DNA of 24,281 nt, taken from positions 1 to 24,281 of the IMG/VR virus record IMGVR_UViG_2675903394_000002; one strand, 5' to 3'. Below, piece after piece: positions 5,680 to 17,541 of this stretch (within the stretch, counting starts at the first letter, position 1; every line of letters starts with the position of its first letter). The position numbers were made by a program, and so were the translations under genes. Below the pieces are notes generated by a model. It was given only the letters and a program-made list of their open reading frames with translations, had not been told where the DNA came from and made no database searches. Origin of the DNA: a virus. Its lineage: Duplodnaviria > Heunggongvirae > Uroviricota > Caudoviricetes.

Positions 5680-6147
5680 TTATTTTAAGCACTGCATCCT
5701 GATGTATTCCTGCAACGTCCTTAATGCGGCTTGATCACTGATGATTCCATCTCTGATACCGAGAACGTTTCGTCCAGCAACTGGAGAGAGTTCGACGGTG
5801 GCATCATTGCCCATGCCGGAGGCGCTGGAGGTTTTGGCTGAGGATGGCACAGGACATTTGCCTTTGACGAGCACCCGACCACCATTATTAAGCTTGCGCC
5901 GAAGAGCATCATTTTCAGCTTTCGCATCAGCTAACTCCTTCGTGTATTTAGCATCGAGTGCAGCAACATCACGCTGACGCACCTGCATGTCAGTAATTGT
6001 CGCGTTCGCCAGTTTCAGTTCTCTGGCATTTTTGTCGCGCTGCTCTTTGTAGGAGATGGCGTTATCACGGTAATGATTAACAGCCAACGACAGGCAGACG
6101 ATGATGCAGATAACCAGTGTGGAGATAATCGTGGTAACTCTGCTCAT
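5680..6147 (-). CDS. Rz: Spanin inner-membrane subunit (i-spanin) Rz
   Basis: [55 protein letters not shown]... closely resembles lambda Rz: N-terminal TM helix plus coiled-coil. The start overlaps the endolysin stop (ATGA). Confidence 0.9.
5721..5927 (-). CDS. Rz1: Spanin outer-membrane lipoprotein subunit (o-spanin) Rz1, embedded in Rz in the +1 frame
   Basis: [21 protein letters not shown]...[16 protein letters not shown]: lipobox (VVGC) followed by a proline-rich segment, lying entirely inside Rz, as for lambda Rz1. Confidence 0.8.
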
Positions 6148-6641
6148 TGTTGCCCCCATAAACAGACTTCACGCTCAATCTCACGGCGAGTCATCAGCCC
6201 TTTCCATTGCTTACCGCCAGCGTATGTCCAGCGCCGTAGCTGATCACATGCGCCTTTGATATCGCCCTGGTTTATTTTGCGAAGAAGCGTCGATGTTCTG
6301 AAATTGCCAGCGCCCACGTTGTAAACGAACGAGTAAAGAGCGCCGCGCGTTGTTTCCGGTATATCGACTTTGATGTACGGGTTAATTTGTCTGGCGACCG
6401 TGGCAAGGTCTTTATTCAGGAGGGCTTTGCATTCTGCTTCGGTATACGTTTTACCTGGTATGATGTCTTTTCCGGTGTGTCCGTGACATACAGTCCATAC
6501 ACCAACAATATCTTTGTATGGTATGTAGCTGACACCTTCCAGACCATCGTTACCACTTGGACCAGTGATGAGCACAGACGCTATGGCAACAGCCCCACCA
6601 CCAATAGCAGCAGCAATAGCCTTGCGTAATGATGGCGACAT
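6144..6641 (-). CDS. R: SAR endolysin (lysozyme, phage 21 R-type, 165 aa)
   Basis: N-terminal Gly/Ala-rich signal-anchor-release helix ([18 protein letters not shown]) followed by a T4-lysozyme-like domain; the sequence closely resembles phage 21 R as I recall it. Confidence 0.9.
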
Positions 6642-6856
6642 TATTCACCTCTCGCAGCCTTACGCTTATCTTCTTTAATCTTGAAATAAAGGTTTGTCAG
6701 ATACGTCAGCAAGCCAAATACCAGACTACCCAGCACACCTATTGCCGCCCACTGTGAGGGCGTGACTTTATCGAGCAACTGTAAAAACCAGTACCCGGCA
6801 CTACCTGCTGAGGTGCCATAGGCGACACCCGTTGTTAACTTATCCATGGATTTCAT
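6641..6856 (-). CDS. S: Pinholin, phage 21 S-type (71 aa) with dual-start motif MKSM
   Basis: [71 protein letters not shown]: two TM helices, resembles S21. Ribosome-binding site GAGGTGGAG upstream of the start at 6856. The ORF track extends to 6910. Confidence 0.85.
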
Positions 6857-7123
6857 AACTCCACCTCGCAGATGCGGGTGCAAATTGAGAGAATAAAAAA
6901 TCCCCGACAATTCCAGATGTCAGCGGCCTTAAATATAAAAACAGGCAAATGCCGAGGCCCGCTAATCGTTGCCACTATGAGCGCTGCGACGCCATTTCAT
7001 CCAGACAAGCTATCAGATACGGAAGCCGTGCTGCCGCTTTTACGGCATTGTATTCACTATACTTATCTATTCTGATATCGTTAAATCAACAGAAATAACC
7101 AATATCAGAAGGAACGCATTAAT

Positions 7124-7672
7124 ATGGCGAACAATCTTTTTTATACACTTGACAGGCAGCGCACACTGAAGTCAGGCATGAAAATTGAATTAGCAGAACC
7201 GTACTGCCCAATCGTTCCACTTCAGGCTCATACGAGCTCATTGTTTTCCGACGGTGTATCCCGGCATGCAAATAATCTTTTTTTCAACTACCACATAAAC
7301 CTCGTCAGCTCAGACGAACGATTTGGAGCAATAATAGAAATACTACTGGAAGAACGAAGGAAATCACACTTCCCTGAAAAACCATCACGCTTCCAATCAA
7401 TTTTTGCATGTGAGTCTGTAAAAGAAACCGCCTGGTTCAGAGGCTTTTCAAAATCCCCACTTGACACCCCAATATTTCAAGTCAGCTCATCGTCGAACTA
7501 TCATAGAGGTGATATGAATTTGTTAAATCTGAACTGCTCCCCAGTAGAAGTATCTCAGAGGCTGGATCTTTACTGGAAGGGTGAAACAACACAGATTTAC
7601 GAAGGGTATCAACCATTCTGGGAAGTGCTCATTCCATTGCCAGTTATTATTGGTGAAAGAATTATCGAATAA
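7124..7672 (+). CDS. Hypothetical soluble protein (182 aa), first gene of the inverted insertion between S and Q
   Basis: ORF on the strand opposite to the late operon in an AT-rich insert. No TM segments and no family recognised. Confidence 0.6.
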   Translation: MANNLFYTLDRQRTLKSGMKIELAEPYCPIVPLQAHTSSLFSDGVSRHANNLFFNYHINLVSSDERFGAIIEILLEERRKSHFPEKPSRFQSIFACESVKETAWFRGFSKSPLDTPIFQVSSSSNYHRGDMNLLNLNCSPVEVSQRLDLYWKGETTQIYEGYQPFWEVLIPLPVIIGERIIE

Positions 7673-7862
7673 TGGCTCTGACACCAGAATCATTTCCATA
7701 GCCGAACTGACGCTGACAGATTTTTAATTCGCTTATGGCTTTCTCCATTGCTAATAGCGCGTCTTCAGTACGGTAGCAATCAACCTCAAGAACAAACGTT
7801 TTGAGATTGCTACTATCATTCCCGGCGAAAAGCGCATAGCTGGGTTGACCAGTCTGATTCAT
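7662..7862 (-). CDS. Possible small antisense ORF (66 aa) whose start abuts a G9 tract
   Basis: ORF-track entry; the start ATG at 7862 is immediately preceded on the minus strand by GAGG plus a run of G. It converges on and overlaps the 3' end of the 7124-7672 gene by 11 nt. Could be spurious. Confidence 0.25.
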   Translation of the reverse strand: MNQTGQPSYALFAGNDSSNLKTFVLEVDCYRTEDALLAMEKAISELKICQRQFGYGNDSGVRAIIR

Positions 7863-8014
7863 CCCCCCCCCTCAAACGACGAAACCCGCTCGACGGCGGG
7901 TTTAAGCCACGTGACAAAGTAACCACTCTTAACACGATACAATAGTTTTTGCGTACGCGTTAGCATTTTTGTTAAAGTATAAAAATGTAATTAAACCAGT
8001 ATGTCATCACTACA

Positions 8015-8899
8015 ATGAAATGCATCCGAAAACATCCAGCAATAGCTTATACAGTAATTATTTTAGTTTTTGCCTTAATATACAATTTCACTTGGAGCGT
8101 CAATCCAGATTCTTTCATTAAAAACAACGTTCTCAACTCTACACCTGTATATGATGCCGTTAATTTAGCATATGCGAACAATGAGGTAAAAAAAGAAGCT
8201 CCTGTCAGTGTTTCGAGGGAAGTATTTGCAGAGCAAATTTTAACACTTACAAATCAATTCAATAAGATAATAATTGAAAACTTAGAACTTGAAAAAACAT
8301 TATCTCAGCAGCAAGAAAAATTAAAACAAATTAGTGAAAGACAATCAATAAAGTGGGGCGAAAACACCAAAAAATACATAGCAGACAGTTTGAAAGATTT
8401 ACACAAAACGCTTATCACTAAAAATAGTGAACGTACTGCCATAGCATCTTTAAAAAACAAAACAAATGAAAGTCAGATTAACACTATGCTGGCCGACAAA
8501 GATGAAGAAATAGCCAAAATAAACCTTGAAATAGCGTATAAAGAGTATGATGCTAATGTCTATATCTTATCTCATGTCGGCGACTTTAACGATCCAATAA
8601 TCGTTAATGAGCTTGACGCAATCAATAAAGAAATTGAGAAAACAAGAACAAAAATAATAAACAACAAAAAGAAAATAATGGAGATAAGGAATAAATCTCA
8701 ATCTATGCTGGAGAAACTCAAAAAAGATGACCTTAACTTTTTGGATTTCTTATTTTATAGCATAGGAATATCTACAACGACCACCTTTGGTGATTTGTTA
8801 GCAAATTCAAGACTTATCAGACTGATAGTTTGCGTGCAACTTTTACTATCAATTATAGTTTTAGCTAACGTAACTCAAAGATTTTTATCAAAAAAATAA
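8015..8899 (+). CDS. Hypothetical membrane protein (294 aa): N-terminal TM helix, Lys/Glu/Asn-rich coiled-coil domain, C-terminal potassium-channel-like pore helix/filter/TM module
   Basis: Hydrophobic segment AIAYTVIILVFALIYNFTW at about aa 9-27; heptad-like K/E/N/I-rich middle; C-terminal NFLDFLFYSIGISTTTTFGDLL (nt 8726-8794) followed by TM helix LIRLIVCVQLLLSIIVLANV. Very AT-rich codon usage. Confidence 0.7.
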   Translation: MKCIRKHPAIAYTVIILVFALIYNFTWSVNPDSFIKNNVLNSTPVYDAVNLAYANNEVKKEAPVSVSREVFAEQILTLTNQFNKIIIENLELEKTLSQQQEKLKQISERQSIKWGENTKKYIADSLKDLHKTLITKNSERTAIASLKNKTNESQINTMLADKDEEIAKINLEIAYKEYDANVYILSHVGDFNDPIIVNELDAINKEIEKTRTKIINNKKKIMEIRNKSQSMLEKLKKDDLNFLDFLFYSIGISTTTTFGDLLANSRLIRLIVCVQLLLSIIVLANVTQRFLSKK

Positions 8900-8906
8900 A
8901 AAACAA

Positions 8907-8926
8907 AGCCCTCAAAAATGAGGGCT
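8907..8926 (-). terminator. Rho-independent terminator hairpin (agccctca-aaaa-tgagggct), strongest on the minus strand just downstream of Q; also positioned to terminate the plus-strand 8015-8899 gene
   Basis: Perfect 8-bp stem with 4-nt loop. On the minus strand it is followed by UUGUUUUUUAUUUUUUU; on the plus strand by AAUUUAAA. Confidence 0.6.
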
Positions 8927-8936
8927 AATTTAAACC

Positions 8937-9281
8937 TTAAGATAAGAACGATAAAATCCCGTCCAAAAATCCTAGTGCAGTTTGCAATTCCTTTCTAATC
9001 GTGCCATCTGAACACCTTCTCTTCTTGGCAATAGTGCGTAATGAGATACCAATAACAAAGTGGGCAATTAGTAGCTCATATTCTTCTGGCTTATATTTAC
9101 GCAACCTCGCCACACATCCATCAATCATAAGACCTTCATCATCATCACACTGCATCCGGGACTTTTTGCCATGAGGTAAAAGCCCCTTGAAGCCTGCTGC
9201 TATCGGCTGCCAATCCACACTACTGTTATCTGCTGCAGCCCATGCTCCCCAGCGGTCCAAAACTTCATACATGTCACGCAT
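8937..9281 (-). CDS. Q: Late-gene antitermination protein Q (DLP12 QuuD-like, about 114 aa)
   Basis: MRDMYEVLDRWGAWAAADNSSVDWQPIAAGFKGLLPHGKKSRMQCDDDEG... resembles DLP12 QuuD as I recall it. Ribosome-binding site GGAGAAAG upstream of the ATG at 9281. The ORF track extends to 9335. Confidence 0.8.
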   Translation of the reverse strand: MRDMYEVLDRWGAWAAADNSSVDWQPIAAGFKGLLPHGKKSRMQCDDDEGLMIDGCVARLRKYKPEEYELLIAHFVIGISLRTIAKKRRCSDGTIRKELQTALGFLDGILSFLS

Positions 9282-9365
9282 CAACTTTCTCCACAAAATC
9301 AGGCCAGCACGCCAATTACAAGCAAAAATCAACAAAACAGTATTAGTTGATTGTTATCTCTGACT

Positions 9366-10984: not shown

Positions 10985-11782
10985 TTACTCTCTGGAAGCT
11001 TTTCTTATCTCTCTTGGTGTTATATTAAAACGATTATGAAATCTTTCTGTAAAACGAGAAGGACACTTATAACCATTTTCTCTGGCAATCTCGCTTATAG
11101 GTTTTACCGTCGTTTGTATAGCAGACAACGCATTATTTAACCTCACATCGTCCAGTATACTTTGGAAACTTACCCCCTCGCTTGCTAGACGGCGATGTAA
11201 TGTAGAAACAGAAATGTAGAGATATCGAGCAACCTTGTTTGCTGTCCATTTTGTGCCGGGTTCGGATAGCAGCAGGTTATAACAACGACTTATCAATGAT
11301 TGTTTACTATATGATAAAAGTAAATGATTAACATGATTCACTCCTAACGAAAGTAGAACGCCCATTGCTAAGTGCTCCTGAATTTTAGTTGAGAAGCCTC
11401 GGGAAACAGATGTTTTTAGTTGCTCCCAACAATATATTAACTCAGGATTCTGAGGTAAAAAGAAACTTGTTTTGTTACGTATTTGATCAGTTACCGTATA
11501 AAGTTTTTGGAAACTCTCAATTAAATCAATGGGTAAGTAAAGCATTTCTGCAAGATAAAGCCCTGCTTCAGGATAATTCTCAATATAAAATTCATAACCA
11601 CAAGGAAATAATATTATTTGATTATTATCAACAGTTAAAGTATGCGTCTCCCAATTGATAACTTTCTTTCCCTGACGGATACGACACAAAGCTGGCATAA
11701 GAGGCTTAACCCTATGAATCTCATGATGTTTATGCATCCGTATTTCTTCGATCTTTAAGTTAGTCTTACCTCTTGCCAGCAT
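10985..11782 (-). CDS. ybcM: AraC-family transcriptional regulator (265 aa)
   Basis: C-terminal AraC-type HTH region (…[41 protein letters not shown]…); size and position match DLP12 ybcM. Confidence 0.85.
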
Positions 11783-11791
11783 ACTCTCACC

Positions 11792-12343
11792 CTACTTTAT
11801 CTCATAAACTGGTGTTATCTCAGCGGTTGCGATTTTATTAGCATTAAGCATATAACCAACTAACGCTCCGCTGGAGTTAGAATCTACAGGAATCTTTTCA
11901 GTTTTTAGAGCCCATACTTTAAACTGGTAATGATGTGGTTTATCTCCTTTAGGAGGACATGCGCCACCAAACCCAGCATAGCCAAAATCATTTCGGCCTT
12001 GAACAGCACCAGTCGGCAGTTTTGTTCCATCACGTCTCCCTGCATCAACGGGCAAATATGTTATTGTTGCTGGAATATTAACAACAGTCCAATGCCACCA
12101 ACCACTGCCTGTAGGTGCATCTGGATCATATACAGTTACGGCAAAGCTTTTGGTACCTTCAGGAACACCAGACCAGGTTAATGAGGGCGATGTATTACCA
12201 CCTTCACACCCAAATCCAGAAAAGACATGAGACGTTGTAAGTTGCTCTCCTGTTTTTATTTCATTACTAGTGACCTGAAATGCTGCAGCCTGCGCAGAAA
12301 ATGTTATGAATGCCAATACAGTTGAAACGATAAGTGTTTTCAT
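11792..12343 (-). CDS. ybcL: Secreted PEBP/YbcL-family protein (183 aa) with signal peptide
   Basis: N-terminal signal peptide MKTLIVSTVLAFITFSAQAAA; resembles E. coli YbcL. Confidence 0.85.
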   Translation of the reverse strand: MKTLIVSTVLAFITFSAQAAAFQVTSNEIKTGEQLTTSHVFSGFGCEGGNTSPSLTWSGVPEGTKSFAVTVYDPDAPTGSGWWHWTVVNIPATITYLPVDAGRRDGTKLPTGAVQGRNDFGYAGFGGACPPKGDKPHHYQFKVWALKTEKIPVDSNSSGALVGYMLNANKIATAEITPVYEIK

Positions 12344-12807: not shown

Positions 12808-14334
12808 TTAGAAATAAATCTCACCATCAACCATATATTTGAGAGCACTTATCGCCTGCTGGGCGGATATTACTTTCATTAAAGGATAGTGTTTAAAAAC
12901 AATGCCATTCATAAAATAGATACCACAGGTTTTATTATCCGTATTAATTATGATTTTTTCGAATGTTTTATAGGCAAGTGTACGGCATAACTCTCGTCCA
13001 TTTTTACTGGTTAAGTCAATAGCATAAAAATCACTGAATGAATTTACACCTTTACTCTTCAAAGTTTTCAATGATACCGAAGCCCTTCGTAATTCCTTAT
13101 CTAATAGTCTTATTTTCTCTGCTATAGCGGTAACTTCAGGCGCGACAGACAATGCAACGATTAAATTATTAATTTTCATCTGAAGCTCAATAATTTTTAA
13201 CTCTAAAGTTTCATTAGCATCTTTCTTGTTTTCAACTGGTTGAATTTTGCTACAATTAAAAAGCAATTCATTAATGATATTATAATCAACCAAATCTCTT
13301 TTTATTGATGGCCTGTCACATCGATGTAATCTTCTCATCGGACAAACATAATAGCCATGCAAACTTCCAGATACCGCATGAACAATCATGGTATTACCAC
13401 AAGCCTCACACTTCATAACTGTTCGAAGTAGATTTATTAGCATAGGATTCTTGCTACTATTGCTAATACCAAAAGGTGCCAACCGAATTTCCTGTACAGC
13501 GTAAAACAAATCATCTGATATAACTCTGGGATAATAGCCAGCGATTTCACTTATCCCTTTCCCTCTTGCACGATATGAAGGTACGCATATACCTATCAGA
13601 GCTTTATTCGCTAATAATTTTTCAATTACAGAAGGTCCCCATGCACTTTCTTTTCCTGAGAAATTCTTTACAGCATGATCATTTAAATACTTGGCTATTG
13701 CATTCAATGAGCGCCTTTCCATCCTGAGTTTAAAAATTAGCTCAATAGTTTTCACCCTGTCGGGGTCTGGAACAAAAGCCGTTCTTTTGTCATCTAAGGA
13801 GAGCCATCTCGGACAAGACGCCGTCATAATCGTACCTGATTCCATTGCATCCTGCCGTTTTTTCTTCCATGATAATTTAACCCGACTTGACTTTATCTCG
13901 CTTTCTTCATTTGCCCTTTGTGCTATAAGTATGGCTTTTATTAATGAATATGGCTCATTCAAAGAGTCAATATTATAGACTGTATTGTCGCAAAGAGTTA
14001 TAACATCAATACCGTGATTCAAAATCAATTTCAGACGTTCAATCGCTTCACCGACTTTTTCTCTTGAAAGTCTGTCCAGACTTTCAACTAACAATGTAGT
14101 TCCTGGCAATATATAACCATGCTCTATAGCATCTAAAAATTCCGAAAAAGCTCCTGATTGTGCATGCTTTCCTTTGAATGCACTTAATCCTAAATCTTCA
14201 TATGTTATGGTATCAAGATAATAATCACTATTTACCTTTAACCATTCAGCAATAAGTCTTCTCTGTCGGTTTAATGAGTCACCAGACATCTGACCTGGTG
14301 ATGAAAATCGCATATATGCTATGGCTTTTTTCAT
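12808..14334 (-). CDS. ybcK: Large serine recombinase (508 aa)
   Basis: N-terminal resolvase-type catalytic motif AYMRFSSPGQ and a Cys-rich region (CPRW…C…CEACG…CPMRRLHRC) typical of large serine recombinases; size matches DLP12 YbcK. Confidence 0.85.
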   Translation of the reverse strand: MKKAIAYMRFSSPGQMSGDSLNRQRRLIAEWLKVNSDYYLDTITYEDLGLSAFKGKHAQSGAFSEFLDAIEHGYILPGTTLLVESLDRLSREKVGEAIERLKLILNHGIDVITLCDNTVYNIDSLNEPYSLIKAILIAQRANEESEIKSSRVKLSWKKKRQDAMESGTIMTASCPRWLSLDDKRTAFVPDPDRVKTIELIFKLRMERRSLNAIAKYLNDHAVKNFSGKESAWGPSVIEKLLANKALIGICVPSYRARGKGISEIAGYYPRVISDDLFYAVQEIRLAPFGISNSSKNPMLINLLRTVMKCEACGNTMIVHAVSGSLHGYYVCPMRRLHRCDRPSIKRDLVDYNIINELLFNCSKIQPVENKKDANETLELKIIELQMKINNLIVALSVAPEVTAIAEKIRLLDKELRRASVSLKTLKSKGVNSFSDFYAIDLTSKNGRELCRTLAYKTFEKIIINTDNKTCGIYFMNGIVFKHYPLMKVISAQQAISALKYMVDGEIYF

Positions 14335-17001: not shown

Positions 17002-17541
17002 TCATATCGCCCCCAGCATGGTAGTAACCATCGCCATCAATGGACCAGCCAGATCTGGGTCCACACGAAACATCGACACAATACCTTCACTAATTTCCTT
17101 CAGTTTCTGGTGGCGTGGTGCGTTGAGAATGACAGCCTGTTTTGCCTCACTGAGTTCCTTTTCCATTTCAGCCAACCTAGCCATGAAGCTATCCTGCTCA
17201 ACCAGGTAACCGCGATATTCCAGCGGTAGTACCGCCAGAATTGCCGGGGTCAGTTCACGCACGTTATTTCGGTATTTTTCAGAATCGAATTTGTTATCGA
17301 GGAAGCGGAACAGCTTCTGGCGTGCACGGCTGACATCATCAGGGAAATCGATGGTGCCGCCGCCCTGCTCCCGATACTCATTCACAATGAGTGTGGCAAC
17401 GACATCCTGATTATCTACAGCCGACCAGGCGCGGACGGCATCACGGATTTTTTCGTGGCCTGGCACCTGTTTTGTTTGAGAACGATTTATCACCGCAGTC
17501 GGGCTAAATCCGCTAGTCTGTTGGTATGTAAGTGGTTGCAT
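17002..17541 (-). CDS. CII-like/YdaT-family protein (179 aa)
   Basis: Motifs NEYREQGGGTIDF and VRELTPAILAVLPLEYRGYL resemble Rac YdaT as I recall it. It occupies the cII position between cro and O. Confidence 0.7.
   Translation of the reverse strand: MQPLTYQQTSGFSPTAVINRSQTKQVPGHEKIRDAVRAWSAVDNQDVVATLIVNEYREQGGGTIDFPDDVSRARQKLFRFLDNKFDSEKYRNNVRELTPAILAVLPLEYRGYLVEQDSFMARLAEMEKELSEAKQAVILNAPRHQKLKEISEGIVSMFRVDPDLAGPLMAMVTTMLGAI

Follow-up and report, generated by a model that had tools for sequence, protein, structure and literature searches.

Two independently mobile cargo modules, parted by a conserved, putative late-control element, between the antiterminator and lysis genes of a Q21-type lambdoid prophage

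Genes and features between Q and holin S

The stretch analysed here, 24,281 nucleotides in length and referred to as the window, belongs to a DLP12-like lambdoid prophage of Escherichia coli with an antiterminator Q of the Q21 type. Pfam matches placed Rz, R, S and Q all on the minus strand, as a preliminary description made from the letters alone had proposed for the late operon, and the two plus-strand genes that it reported between S and Q were present where it put them. It had missed two features: a 66-aa ORF on the late-operon strand and a conserved minus-strand element of ~100 nt at 7872–7974, between ORF1 and ORF2. The features of the region are as follows.

5680–6159, minus strand: Rz (strong Pfam match)
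6144–6641, minus strand: endolysin R (strong Pfam match)
6641–6856, minus strand: holin S of the P21 pinholin type (Pfam Phage_holin_2_1, E 3.8e-35), the left flank of the cargo
6935–~7881: module B, a mobile cassette with ORF1 and the convergent 66-aa ORF
7124–7672, plus strand: ORF1, 182 aa, soluble, DUF2441/BC2332-like, with an ADP-ribosyltransferase fold
7662–7862, minus strand: 66-aa ORF, phrog_10826 (E 2.4e-40)
7872–7903, minus strand: intrinsic terminator, putative tR', with stem AAACCCGC / GCGGGTTT followed by CGTCGTTT
7927–7963, minus strand: conserved core of 37 nt, CTAACGCGTACGCAAAAACTATTGTATCGTGTTAAGA, putative pR' with Q-loading site
7975–8958: module A, the ORF2 cassette, between Q and the putative pR' element, with the final ~7 codons of Q and a hairpin of its own
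8015–8899, plus strand: ORF2, 294 aa, K+ channel superfamily, the only gene of module A
8907–8926, minus strand: hairpin AGCCCTCA-loop-TGAGGGCT inside the ORF2 cassette (terminator scan: 8 pairs, tail TTGTTTTTTA)
8937–9281 (callable to 9335), minus strand: antiterminator Q, PF06530, Q21/933W type (Pfam Phage_antitermQ, E 3.8e-45)

Q is related to the Q21 structure 6P18 (E 4.9e-4), and its homologues in relatives are called as 114 aa. PF06530 is given for both the Q21 and the Q82 families in the Q21 preprint, apparently as a typographical error, and the family was settled through similarity to the Q21 structure. For holin S, a TTG start would carry the ORF to 6910; MKSMDK is the likely start. 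All three ORFs of the region (ORF1, the 66-aa ORF and ORF2) are under purifying selection, with dN/dS of 0.05–0.38.

Two modules parted by a conserved element

The Q-to-lysis-gene region is a genuine cargo slot, as had been suggested, and the cargo in it is truly foreign. The further claim that ORF1 and ORF2 arrived as a single two-gene insertion is contradicted by the element at 7872–7974: because this conserved stretch stands between them, there are two modules rather than one insertion, and alignments showed a mosaic region in which the two cargo modules move independently. Locus L014 agrees with the window as far as 7974 and again from 8959, with a different 636 bp in between; in L014 and L016 alike, S, ORF1 and the 66-aa ORF are 100% identical as protein (~96.6% as DNA) and ORF2 is replaced by that other 636-bp cassette. 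L004 has 7882–9323 of the window in common at 95%, and L007, whose Q is of the DUF1133 type and whose holin is likewise of another type, aligns at 91% over 6935–7902, its common sequence stopping at the terminator. The AT-richness ascribed to both genes holds for the ORF2 cassette, whose GC of 0.306 is the lowest of any ~1-kb stretch of the 24-kb window (z −2.4), but not for module B. There GC is 0.431 and the mean of the window 0.464 (z −0.5), and 25% of windows equal or undercut the module's value.

The preliminary description had paired the two proteins as a soluble sensor and a membrane effector in one abortive-infection system like lambda RexAB. They are neighbours on the same strand, both foreign to the late operon, and two viral contigs of the same prophage type carry both. 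Those two contigs are, however, the only cases among 49 ORF1-family loci; the other 47 have no ORF2, and none of the other ORF2-family loci has ORF1. Near-identical copies of each also occur apart: at least 22 places in E. coli prophages have an ORF2 98% identical to that of the window and no ORF1, and another phage has a 93%-identical ORF1 and no ORF2. Between the two genes stand the conserved element and a minus-strand gene, the genes differ in GC (0.42 versus 0.31), and their modules recombine separately. A Pfam scan (E<=0.1) matched neither ORF1 nor ORF2 to the RexA and RexB families, and PADLOC also gave no match. The one-system claim fails as the two genes do not co-occur, which the preliminary description had itself named as grounds for refutation, and we regard such a system as extremely unlikely. 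That genes lie side by side in a mosaic phage region says little about whether they form a system, and the pairing of ORF1 with ORF2 is best seen as a recombination accident.

Judged by its position, the conserved element is probably the late promoter and terminator, pR'/tR'. It lies directly downstream of Q, the late-control position in lambdoid phages, and varies together with the Q family: wherever a contig reaches far enough upstream, the core is preceded by a Q that is 76–99% identical to that of the window. Searches recovered the core from 61 IMG/VR contigs, from about 190 of the 5,426 complete E. coli genomes, and from the phages SfII and Stx2a_WGPS2; none of these E. coli genomes and phages has it annotated. 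The hairpin and T-run of the putative tR' are kept in seven of eight aligned phages, and the leader there folds at −27.1 kcal/mol (z −2.7). Scanning the whole window for Rfam families (at gathering thresholds) and for tRNAs returned nothing, so the element is not a known RNA family. A sigma-70 scan called no promoter within the element or for ORF2, and reading by eye was unconvincing too; we thus infer both the pR' assignment and expression in the lysogen from position. The core sequence was not found in the literature, and papers on the Stx pR' region (PMC6266700) describe neither the core nor inserted opposite-strand genes.

ORF1 and its convergent partner

ORF1 has no hydrophobic segment and belongs, by both sequence and fold, to the DUF2441/BC2332-like family (PDB 2aua; Pfam ADP-ribosyl clan; SCOP d.166.1.6), for which an ADP-ribosyltransferase fold is supported by published work (PMC7955679, PMC3000352, PMC3024214). 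Active ADP-ribosyltransferases carry an H-Y-E or R-S-E motif at the NAD+ pocket; the invariant polar residues of ORF1 are R89, H127, D130, Y150 and E167. To our knowledge, no activity or substrate has been demonstrated for this family.

On the evidence of sequence, the real two-gene module at this locus is ORF1 with the 66-aa gene, its conserved partner. The two ORFs are convergent, the smaller overlapping the 3' end of ORF1 by 11 bp, and all 14 viral contigs that carry the 66-aa ORF also have ORF1. A convergent small ORF lies −11 to +20 bp from the ORF1 stop codon in ~38 of 50 ORF1-family loci, and the partners of ORF1 homologues of ~40% identity are significantly related (E 4e-6 and 1e-5; the best decoy among 1,000 shuffles reached 9e-3). 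The 66-aa ORF itself has a pN of ~0.2 versus a pS of ~0.85. In the remotest relatives of ORF1, only the position of the small ORF is kept, and in Klebsiella phage KP12 the ORF1 homologue is co-directional with the holin. None of the papers found speaks of the tight tie between DUF2441 and a convergent small ORF in lambdoid prophages.

The convergent arrangement is not that of a type II toxin–antitoxin pair, which is a co-directional bicistronic operon. An identity as a HicB-like antitoxin, suggested for the 66-aa ORF by a sequence pattern, found no support in Pfam, and PADLOC-DB 2.0.0 had no match for this ORF or for ORF1.

The 66-aa ORF is the first past the putative tR' on the late strand. 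We tentatively propose, at rather less than even confidence, that ORF1 is an NAD+-dependent ADP-ribosyltransferase produced in the lysogen. When Q turns on late transcription, the 66-aa protein would be made and ORF1 would be transcribed in antisense, which would turn the enzyme off or redirect it during the prophage's own lytic growth. Alternatively, ORF1 might serve counter-defence or host takeover, as AcrIF11 and T4 Alt/Mod do, or act as a virulence toxin, with no part in defence or toxin-immunity; this we consider unlikely.

ORF2: channel fold, cargo slot and a possible role in defence

ORF2 has two transmembrane segments, TM1 (9–27) and TM2 (266–288), and a charge of +3 at each terminus. 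Between the segments lie a helical hairpin (68–237), a pore helix (242–253) and the filter sequence TTTTFGD (254–260). The succession of TM1, pore helix, filter and TM2, with a Pfam Ion_trans_2 match, is that of the 2TM/P-loop K+ channels, and in a structure model of the monomer the pore elements superposed on canonical members (KcsA, Kir/KirBac and NaK) at 2.0–2.2 Å over 80–87 residues, with pore helix and filter aligned in register. Profile match, filter alignment and superposition together bear out the earlier reading of the protein as channel-like. Unlike the canonical channels, ORF2 has ~200 residues between TM1 and the pore helix, including a helical hairpin of ~170 residues that is inserted in the outer turret loop and predicted to be periplasmic, and it has no cytoplasmic gating domain. 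Its filter differs from the canonical T(V/T)GYGD as well: the signature T-x-G-[YF]-G-D is absent, and the family-invariant TTTTFGD aligns to TTVGYGD with an invariant Thr at the first Gly of GYG. K+ selectivity is doubtful for this reason, and the Thr-for-Gly filter could make for a non-conducting or differently selective pore.

Below-threshold matches of ORF2 to phage Alc, DUF5647 and CBP66 (Pfam), to EscU (NCBIfam) and to PDC-M68B (PADLOC, E 0.045) all fell on its coiled coil and were set aside; the last was the only hit in PADLOC-DB 2.0.0, which gave no significant match. The preliminary description, too, had recognised neither ORF1 nor ORF2 as a named defence component.

The slot that holds the ORF2 cassette is bounded by the stop codon of Q and by the conserved element. 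In L106, L114 and L116 it is empty, the core beginning 15 bp past the stop codon, and occupied gaps fall into discrete classes from 624 to 1920 bp with GC of 0.31–0.38, the ~972-bp class of the ORF2 cassette comprising six loci. There are at least eight cassette types (ORF2 and at least seven others), all AT-rich and all on the opposite strand, and most are unannotated pairs of a soluble and a multi-TM protein. One type, present in SfII and 10 other loci, matches PADLOC PDC-M53A/B (E 2e-32 and 2e-54). This cassette (SfII_49/SfII_50 type) sits in exactly the same Q-to-pR' slot and shares the AT-richness and strand of the ORF2 cassette, but its two genes, for a 340-aa soluble and a 194-aa multi-TM protein, have no sequence relation to ORF2, and it is itself only a candidate system. 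Foreign genes between Q and the lysis genes are familiar from stx in Stx phages, as seen here in Stx2a_WGPS2, and from nmpC in DLP12 of E. coli K-12. Both stx and nmpC are Q-dependent late-strand genes downstream of pR'/tR', whereas the ORF2 slot lies upstream of the putative pR'/tR' and carries its genes on the other strand.

A terminator had been proposed to close the region at 8907–8926. The hairpin is there, but its T-run is on the minus strand, so it suits the Q direction better than ORF2; it probably ends transcription coming from Q and insulates ORF2.

We inspected ~8 genomic contexts of the ORF2 family, which comprises ~165 clusters; most of these contexts are defence islands or prophage defence hotspots. 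One relative lies with nSTAND3, HD and OLD-TOPRIM genes and another with Mrr-nSTAND1, CRISPR I-F and an RT gene; relatives in P2-like prophages adjoin ogr, with TIR_2 nearby, and in L164 a HalA-like gene lies 3.4 kb from the ORF2 relative. A Serratia relative sits among ordinary chromosomal housekeeping genes. A pattern-based contig scan for ORF2 returned only five loci, too few for statistics. No conserved partner gene of ORF2 was seen across the inspected contexts; a 226-aa gene upstream of the Vibrio relative, considered as a general partner, is lineage-specific and has no identity in Pfam, PHROG or PADLOC.

Given the cargo slot, the channel fold and the defence-rich contexts, it is reasonable to regard ORF2 alone as a candidate for an undescribed membrane-effector defence gene. 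We propose that the lysogen would express ORF2 from its own promoter, that the product would form a tetrameric inner-membrane cation channel with its hairpins in the periplasm, and that a phage-dependent trigger would open it, so that membrane potential is lost and the superinfecting phage is aborted or excluded. A single protein would then be both sensor and effector, comparable in function to Hailong HalA or RexB and homologous to neither. We hold this mechanism to be nearly an even prospect.

ORF2 might instead be a lysogenic-conversion ion channel that alters host physiology (K+/cation homeostasis, osmotic or acid tolerance, or membrane potential) and has no anti-phage role. Membership of the K+ channel superfamily, the housekeeping setting of the Serratia relative and database names that say simply 'ion channel' or 'potassium channel family protein' would suit such a channel. 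The other contexts, mostly prophage hotspots or defence islands, speak against it, as do the candidate defence pair carried by the same slot, a filter without the first Gly of GYG, which does not favour a conventional K+-selective housekeeping channel, and a patchy, mobile distribution (ORF2 is absent by megablast from the 5,426 complete E. coli genomes). We judge it improbable.

Pinholins and SAR-type endolysins respond to membrane depolarization, and in the window the holin is a P21-type pinholin and the endolysin has a hydrophobic N-terminus (SAR-type), so ORF2 could be imagined to tune or trigger the prophage's own lysis by depolarizing the membrane. It is, however, encoded on the opposite strand and upstream of the putative pR', which puts it outside the late transcript, and the same gene occurs beside lambda-type holins (Phage_holin_3_1), in P2-like prophages and in non-phage islands. 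A role in lysis is thus very unlikely.

Taken as a whole explanation, two independent modules, with channel-based defence proposed for ORF2 and a Q-controlled enzyme for ORF1 and the 66-aa gene, has our qualified preference. A bolder version, which we put forward as doubtful, is that of a stand-alone anti-phage pore of the ORF2 type in a defence hotspot. The periplasmic hairpins above the pore mouth would sense envelope breach or phage genome entry and provoke a non-selective cation leak that aborts or excludes the infection, and the Q-to-pR' gap of Q21-type lambdoid prophages would be an undescribed defence hotspot with at least eight interchangeable cassettes. As a second element of this version, the DUF2441 ADP-ribosyltransferase and the 66-aa late-strand gene may form a self-immunity switch, in which an effector of lysogeny is neutralized by the first late gene.

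The Q-to-pR' slot offers a simple anchor for mining prophage cargo, namely the 37-nt core beside a Q21-type Q gene, and the pair of DUF2441 and a small ORF gives a handle on an ADP-ribosyltransferase-fold family with a crystal structure from 2005 and no assigned function. If ORF2 does defend, it would do so with no partner enzyme and with its extra domain in the periplasm, where phage entry happens, and sensing of infection by a single membrane protein would become directly testable.

Like lambda RexAB, which is expressed in the lysogen and has been proposed to depolarize the membrane, ORF2 is prophage-encoded; the lysogenic expression and depolarization proposed for ORF2 would extend the likeness. 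RexB is a four-TM protein and not a P-loop channel, and RexA and RexB form an obligate co-transcribed pair in the immunity region; ORF1 and ORF2, in contrast, do not co-occur and lie between Q and S.

Channel effectors in anti-phage defence have a precedent in Hailong (PMC13434031, PMC13586616), which is found in P4 hotspots (PMC13586616). According to the account of Tan et al. 2025 in PMC13434031, its K+-channel-type pore effector HalA depolarizes the cell, carries a cytoplasmic crown of pentapeptide repeats and is closed by oligo-dA from the adjacent nucleotidyltransferase HalB. ORF2 resembles HalA as a K+-channel-type pore on mobile-element hotspots with, in its case, a proposed anti-phage role. 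It differs in having no pentapeptide repeats (no Pentapeptide Pfam match), no significant BLASTP similarity to the HalA-like protein of L164 and no nucleotidyltransferase beside it, its neighbours being Q and the putative pR' element; its extra domain is instead a helical hairpin, predicted to be periplasmic. If it is a defence gene, ORF2 would be a second, structurally different K+-channel pore used as an immune effector, after Hailong HalA.

Two modules that move independently

The window looks like an intact lambdoid prophage of E. coli, of DLP12 type. Pfam matches were found for an integrase, RecT, a cI-type repressor, O, P, a large serine recombinase, Q, holin, endolysin, Rz, Rha, Nu1 and the large terminase subunit, and the ybcL-ybcM-ybcN-ybcO-rusA block shared 99.4% identity with many E. 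coli chromosomes. The minus strand carries the late genes. Between holin S and Q lie the following genes:

7124–7672, plus strand: ORF1, 182 aa, without a hydrophobic segment
7662–7862, minus strand: 66-aa ORF, just after the terminator hairpin of the conserved element described below, overlapping the 3' end of ORF1 by 11 bp and missed in the preliminary description
8015–8899, plus strand: ORF2, 294 aa, with two hydrophobic segments (residues 9–27 and 266–288)

Coordinates and strands of ORF1 and ORF2 agreed with the preliminary description, as did its view of ORF1 as soluble and ORF2 as a membrane protein. The hairpin that it reported at 8907–8926 is present, but its T-run sits on the minus strand. 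AT-richness, ascribed to both genes, held for the ORF2 cassette (GC 0.306, the lowest ~1-kb stretch of the window) but not for the ORF1 module (0.431, within the normal spread).

A second low-GC island, ybcM (AraC-type) and ybcL (PEBP) (10985–12343, GC 0.39), is common to DLP12-like prophages. The prophage may carry further cargo in a 508-aa large serine recombinase (12808–14334, minus strand), which lies between replication gene P and ybcL, and in a protein of the YdaT_toxin family (17002–17541, minus strand), which adjoins the O gene and is divergent from the cI-type repressor. In the lysis cassette (6144–6910), a P21-type pinholin is accompanied by an endolysin that, from its hydrophobic N-terminus, looks like the signal-anchor-release type; pinholins and endolysins of these types both respond to membrane depolarisation.

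ORF1 and ORF2 had been proposed to form a single RexAB-like system of sensor and membrane effector. This was wrong by the proposal's own measure, as the genes do not co-occur, and neither gave a RexA, RexB or PADLOC match. Loci were gathered for each family and each set was searched with members of the other: ORF2 was present in 2 of 49 ORF1-family loci, both of the window's own prophage type, and ORF1 was absent from all other ORF2-family loci collected. A 98%-identical ORF2 occupied at least 22 prophage sites in E. coli, flanked by Q on one side and by a 67-aa ORF, a methyltransferase and a lambda-type holin on the other, with no DUF2441 gene at any of them. Conversely, a 93%-identical ORF1 was carried by a phage with a DUF1133-type Q, a different holin and no channel gene.

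Pairwise alignments with the window placed the boundaries. Locus L004 shared 7882–9323 (ORF2 and Q) and L007 shared 6935–7902 (ORF1 and the 66-aa ORF), while L014 matched up to 7974 and resumed at 8959, a different 636 bp standing in for ORF2:

L014, 3639–4202: 187-aa protein with an N-terminal transmembrane (TM) segment and coiled coil, phrog_31367

Outside this cassette the L014 prophage had ~96% DNA identity to the window, with identical S, ORF1 and 66-aa proteins. L014 is thus a natural cassette swap, usable for isogenic comparison, and the two modules move independently.

A variable cargo slot beside a putative late-control element

In a megablast search of 5,426 complete E. coli genomes with 6911–8936, ORF1 and ORF2 had no match. 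An unannotated ~110-nt stretch between them (7861–7974) was present in 190 of the genomes, as well as in the phages SfII and Stx2a_WGPS2. The order was constant in annotated cases: minus-strand Q, differing plus-strand genes, the element, then late genes. Read on the late strand, the element comprises:

Core, invariant: CTAACGCGTACGCAAAAAYTATTGTATCGTGTTAAGA
Between core and hairpin: a short leader
Hairpin: AAACCCGC / GCGGGTTT, followed by a T-run

The core was found in 61 contigs by IMG/VR search, and wherever enough upstream sequence was available, the upstream Q was 76–99% identical to that of the window (PF06530, a distant relative of the solved Q21 protein). From its position, its association with a single Q family and the presence of a terminator downstream, we infer that the element comprises the late promoter of a lambdoid phage together with the Q-loading site and tR'. 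A promoter scan called no sigma-70 consensus in it, and the core sequence was not found in the literature.

The distance from Q stop codon to core fell into discrete classes of 15 (empty; L106, L114 and L116), 624, ~972 (ORF2), 1399, 1632, ~1657, ~1669 and ~1920 bp, with a still larger cassette in E. coli FT130. At least eight alternative cassettes share the slot between a Q21-type Q and the core; all are AT-rich (GC 0.31–0.38), with genes on the strand opposite to Q. Several encode unannotated pairs of a soluble and a multi-TM protein (273 + 160, 343 + 179 and 340 + 194 aa). The commonest, the ~1669-bp class (11 loci), is of SfII_49/50 type and matched the PADLOC candidate PDC-M53A/B; the remaining cassettes had no PADLOC or Pfam identity.

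L001, 2656–4270: SfII_50 and SfII_49, hypothetical proteins of Shigella phage SfII (PDC-M53B/A, E = 2e-54 and 2e-32)

The gap between Q and core is therefore a recurrent, variable cargo slot. This was observed at 7872–7974 of the window and in loci L069–L129 and L001–L004 (conserved core of 37 nt). In Stx2a_WGPS2 a different pair, gp26/gp27, fills the slot upstream of the stx2 late region.

ORF1 and its 66-aa partner

ORF1 barely passed the DUF2441 threshold in Pfam and strongly matched phrog_5663; 2aua was also found by sequence with the ORF1 family profile (E = 2.7e-6). DUF2441 is already assigned to the ADP-ribosyl clan of Pfam (PMC7955679) and to SCOP d.166.1.6 (PMC3000352), and BC2332 had been predicted to resemble diphtheria toxin (PMC3024214). 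The ADP-ribosyltransferase (ART) fold class of ORF1 was thus already known.

ORF1 is linked to the 66-aa ORF, being present in 14/14 viral contigs that carry the latter. A convergent small ORF lay at −11 to +20 bp of the ORF1 stop in ~38 of 50 ORF1-family loci, including those of relatives at 33–42% identity. Small ORFs beside ~40%-identical ORF1 homologs were significantly related to that of the window (E = 4e-6 and 1e-5; best decoy among 1,000 shuffles, 9e-3), and in the most distant groups the small ORF was conserved in position and size only. The 66-aa ORF is strongly constrained (pN ~0.2 vs pS ~0.85), matches phrog_10826, has no Pfam domain and transfers with ORF1 as one block between phages of different Q and holin types. 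This partner gene seems to be unrecorded. In Klebsiella phage KP12, whose record is classified under Vequintavirinae, an ORF1 homolog of 38% identity (L157, 2992–3558) lies just upstream of the holin and, unlike in lambdoid prophages, is co-directional with the lysis genes.

We tentatively propose, as somewhat less probable than not, that the lysogen produces ORF1 as an ADP-ribosylating enzyme. Late transcription that depends on Q would yield the 66-aa protein first and would also pass antisense through ORF1, so that the partner could shut the enzyme down while the prophage itself grows lytically.

The ORF2 channel and its neighbourhoods

Existing database labels are 'ion channel' for ORF2 and 'DUF2441' for ORF1, and both belong to known superfamilies. 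Residues 239–290 of ORF2 passed the Ion_trans_2 gathering score in Pfam. In the family alignment, GISTTTTFGD was invariant and the N-terminal TM segment, which bears a PDSFIxNxxLNxxP motif, was conserved. A PDB profile search with the C-terminal pore module alone matched K+ channel pores exclusively and in register (Lmo2059 first, E = 3.1e-4, followed by AKT5, NaK-type, K2P and KAT1), with TTTTFGD aligned on TTVGYGD. A canonical pore is thus made up of TM1 and the P-loop/TM2, and ORF2 has a channel fold.

Helices 68–144 and 152–237 are a long hairpin inserted in the turret, which is periplasmic in canonical channels. With a +3 charge at both termini, the positive-inside rule predicts a periplasmic location for the hairpin. 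In this family an invariant threonine takes the place of the first glycine of GYG, which, by what is established about K+ channel filters, makes strict K+ selectivity unlikely. The family is a discrete set: at E ≤ 1e-30 it comprises 165 clusters, almost all of 280–330 aa and matched full-length, and it is under purifying selection (dN/dS 0.17–0.38); no relative was encoded in any deposited phage genome.

Neighbourhoods of ORF2 relatives were as follows:

P0027 (56% identity, Enterobacterales): between an nSTAND3 NTPase, an HD/HD_assoc protein and an OLD-type TOPRIM ATPase
P0068 and P0060 (~25%): end of P2-like prophages, directly after ogr, with a TIR_2 gene near one
P0085 (Vibrio): adjoins an Mrr_cat-nSTAND1 protein, type I-F Cas genes or a reverse transcriptase
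P0094 (Shewanella): 3.4 kb from an Ion_trans_2 and pentapeptide gene resembling Hailong HalA
P0013 (Serratia): ordinary chromosomal genes
L139–L142, 4331–5011 (Vibrio): 226-aa TM and coiled-coil protein (232 aa from an alternative start), always preceding the ORF2 relative
L164, 10282–11229 (Shewanella): the HalA-like gene, Ion_trans_2 with pentapeptide repeats

The inspected contexts (about eight) held no partner gene common to the whole family, and the pattern would be as expected of a defence gene. The overlapping upstream gene was confined to the Vibrio lineage, which suggests a lineage-specific two-gene version; its product had no Pfam, PHROG or PADLOC identity. The Shewanella island, given the HalA-like gene so close to the ORF2 relative, holds two different channel-type genes.

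In the sources searched, we found no description of the turret insertion with variant filter, of an ORF2-type channel alone in immune neighbourhoods, of the Q-to-pR' insertion slot, or of a predicted ART with a small-ORF module.

ORF2 would be made by the lysogen and form a tetrameric inner-membrane cation channel, which phage infection would open, collapsing the membrane potential. A defence role of any kind is a serious possibility, falling a little short of an even balance; that the hairpin specifically performs periplasmic sensing is improbable. Hailong HalA, a tetrameric effector of K+-channel type, depolarises the cell once a phage nuclease destroys its inhibitor, the oligo-dA produced by HalB (PMC13434031; also PMC13586616). 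We rejected ORF2 as a HalA ortholog: unlike HalA, it has no pentapeptide repeats and no NTase neighbour, and the two share no significant similarity. HalA provides a precedent for the role proposed for ORF2.
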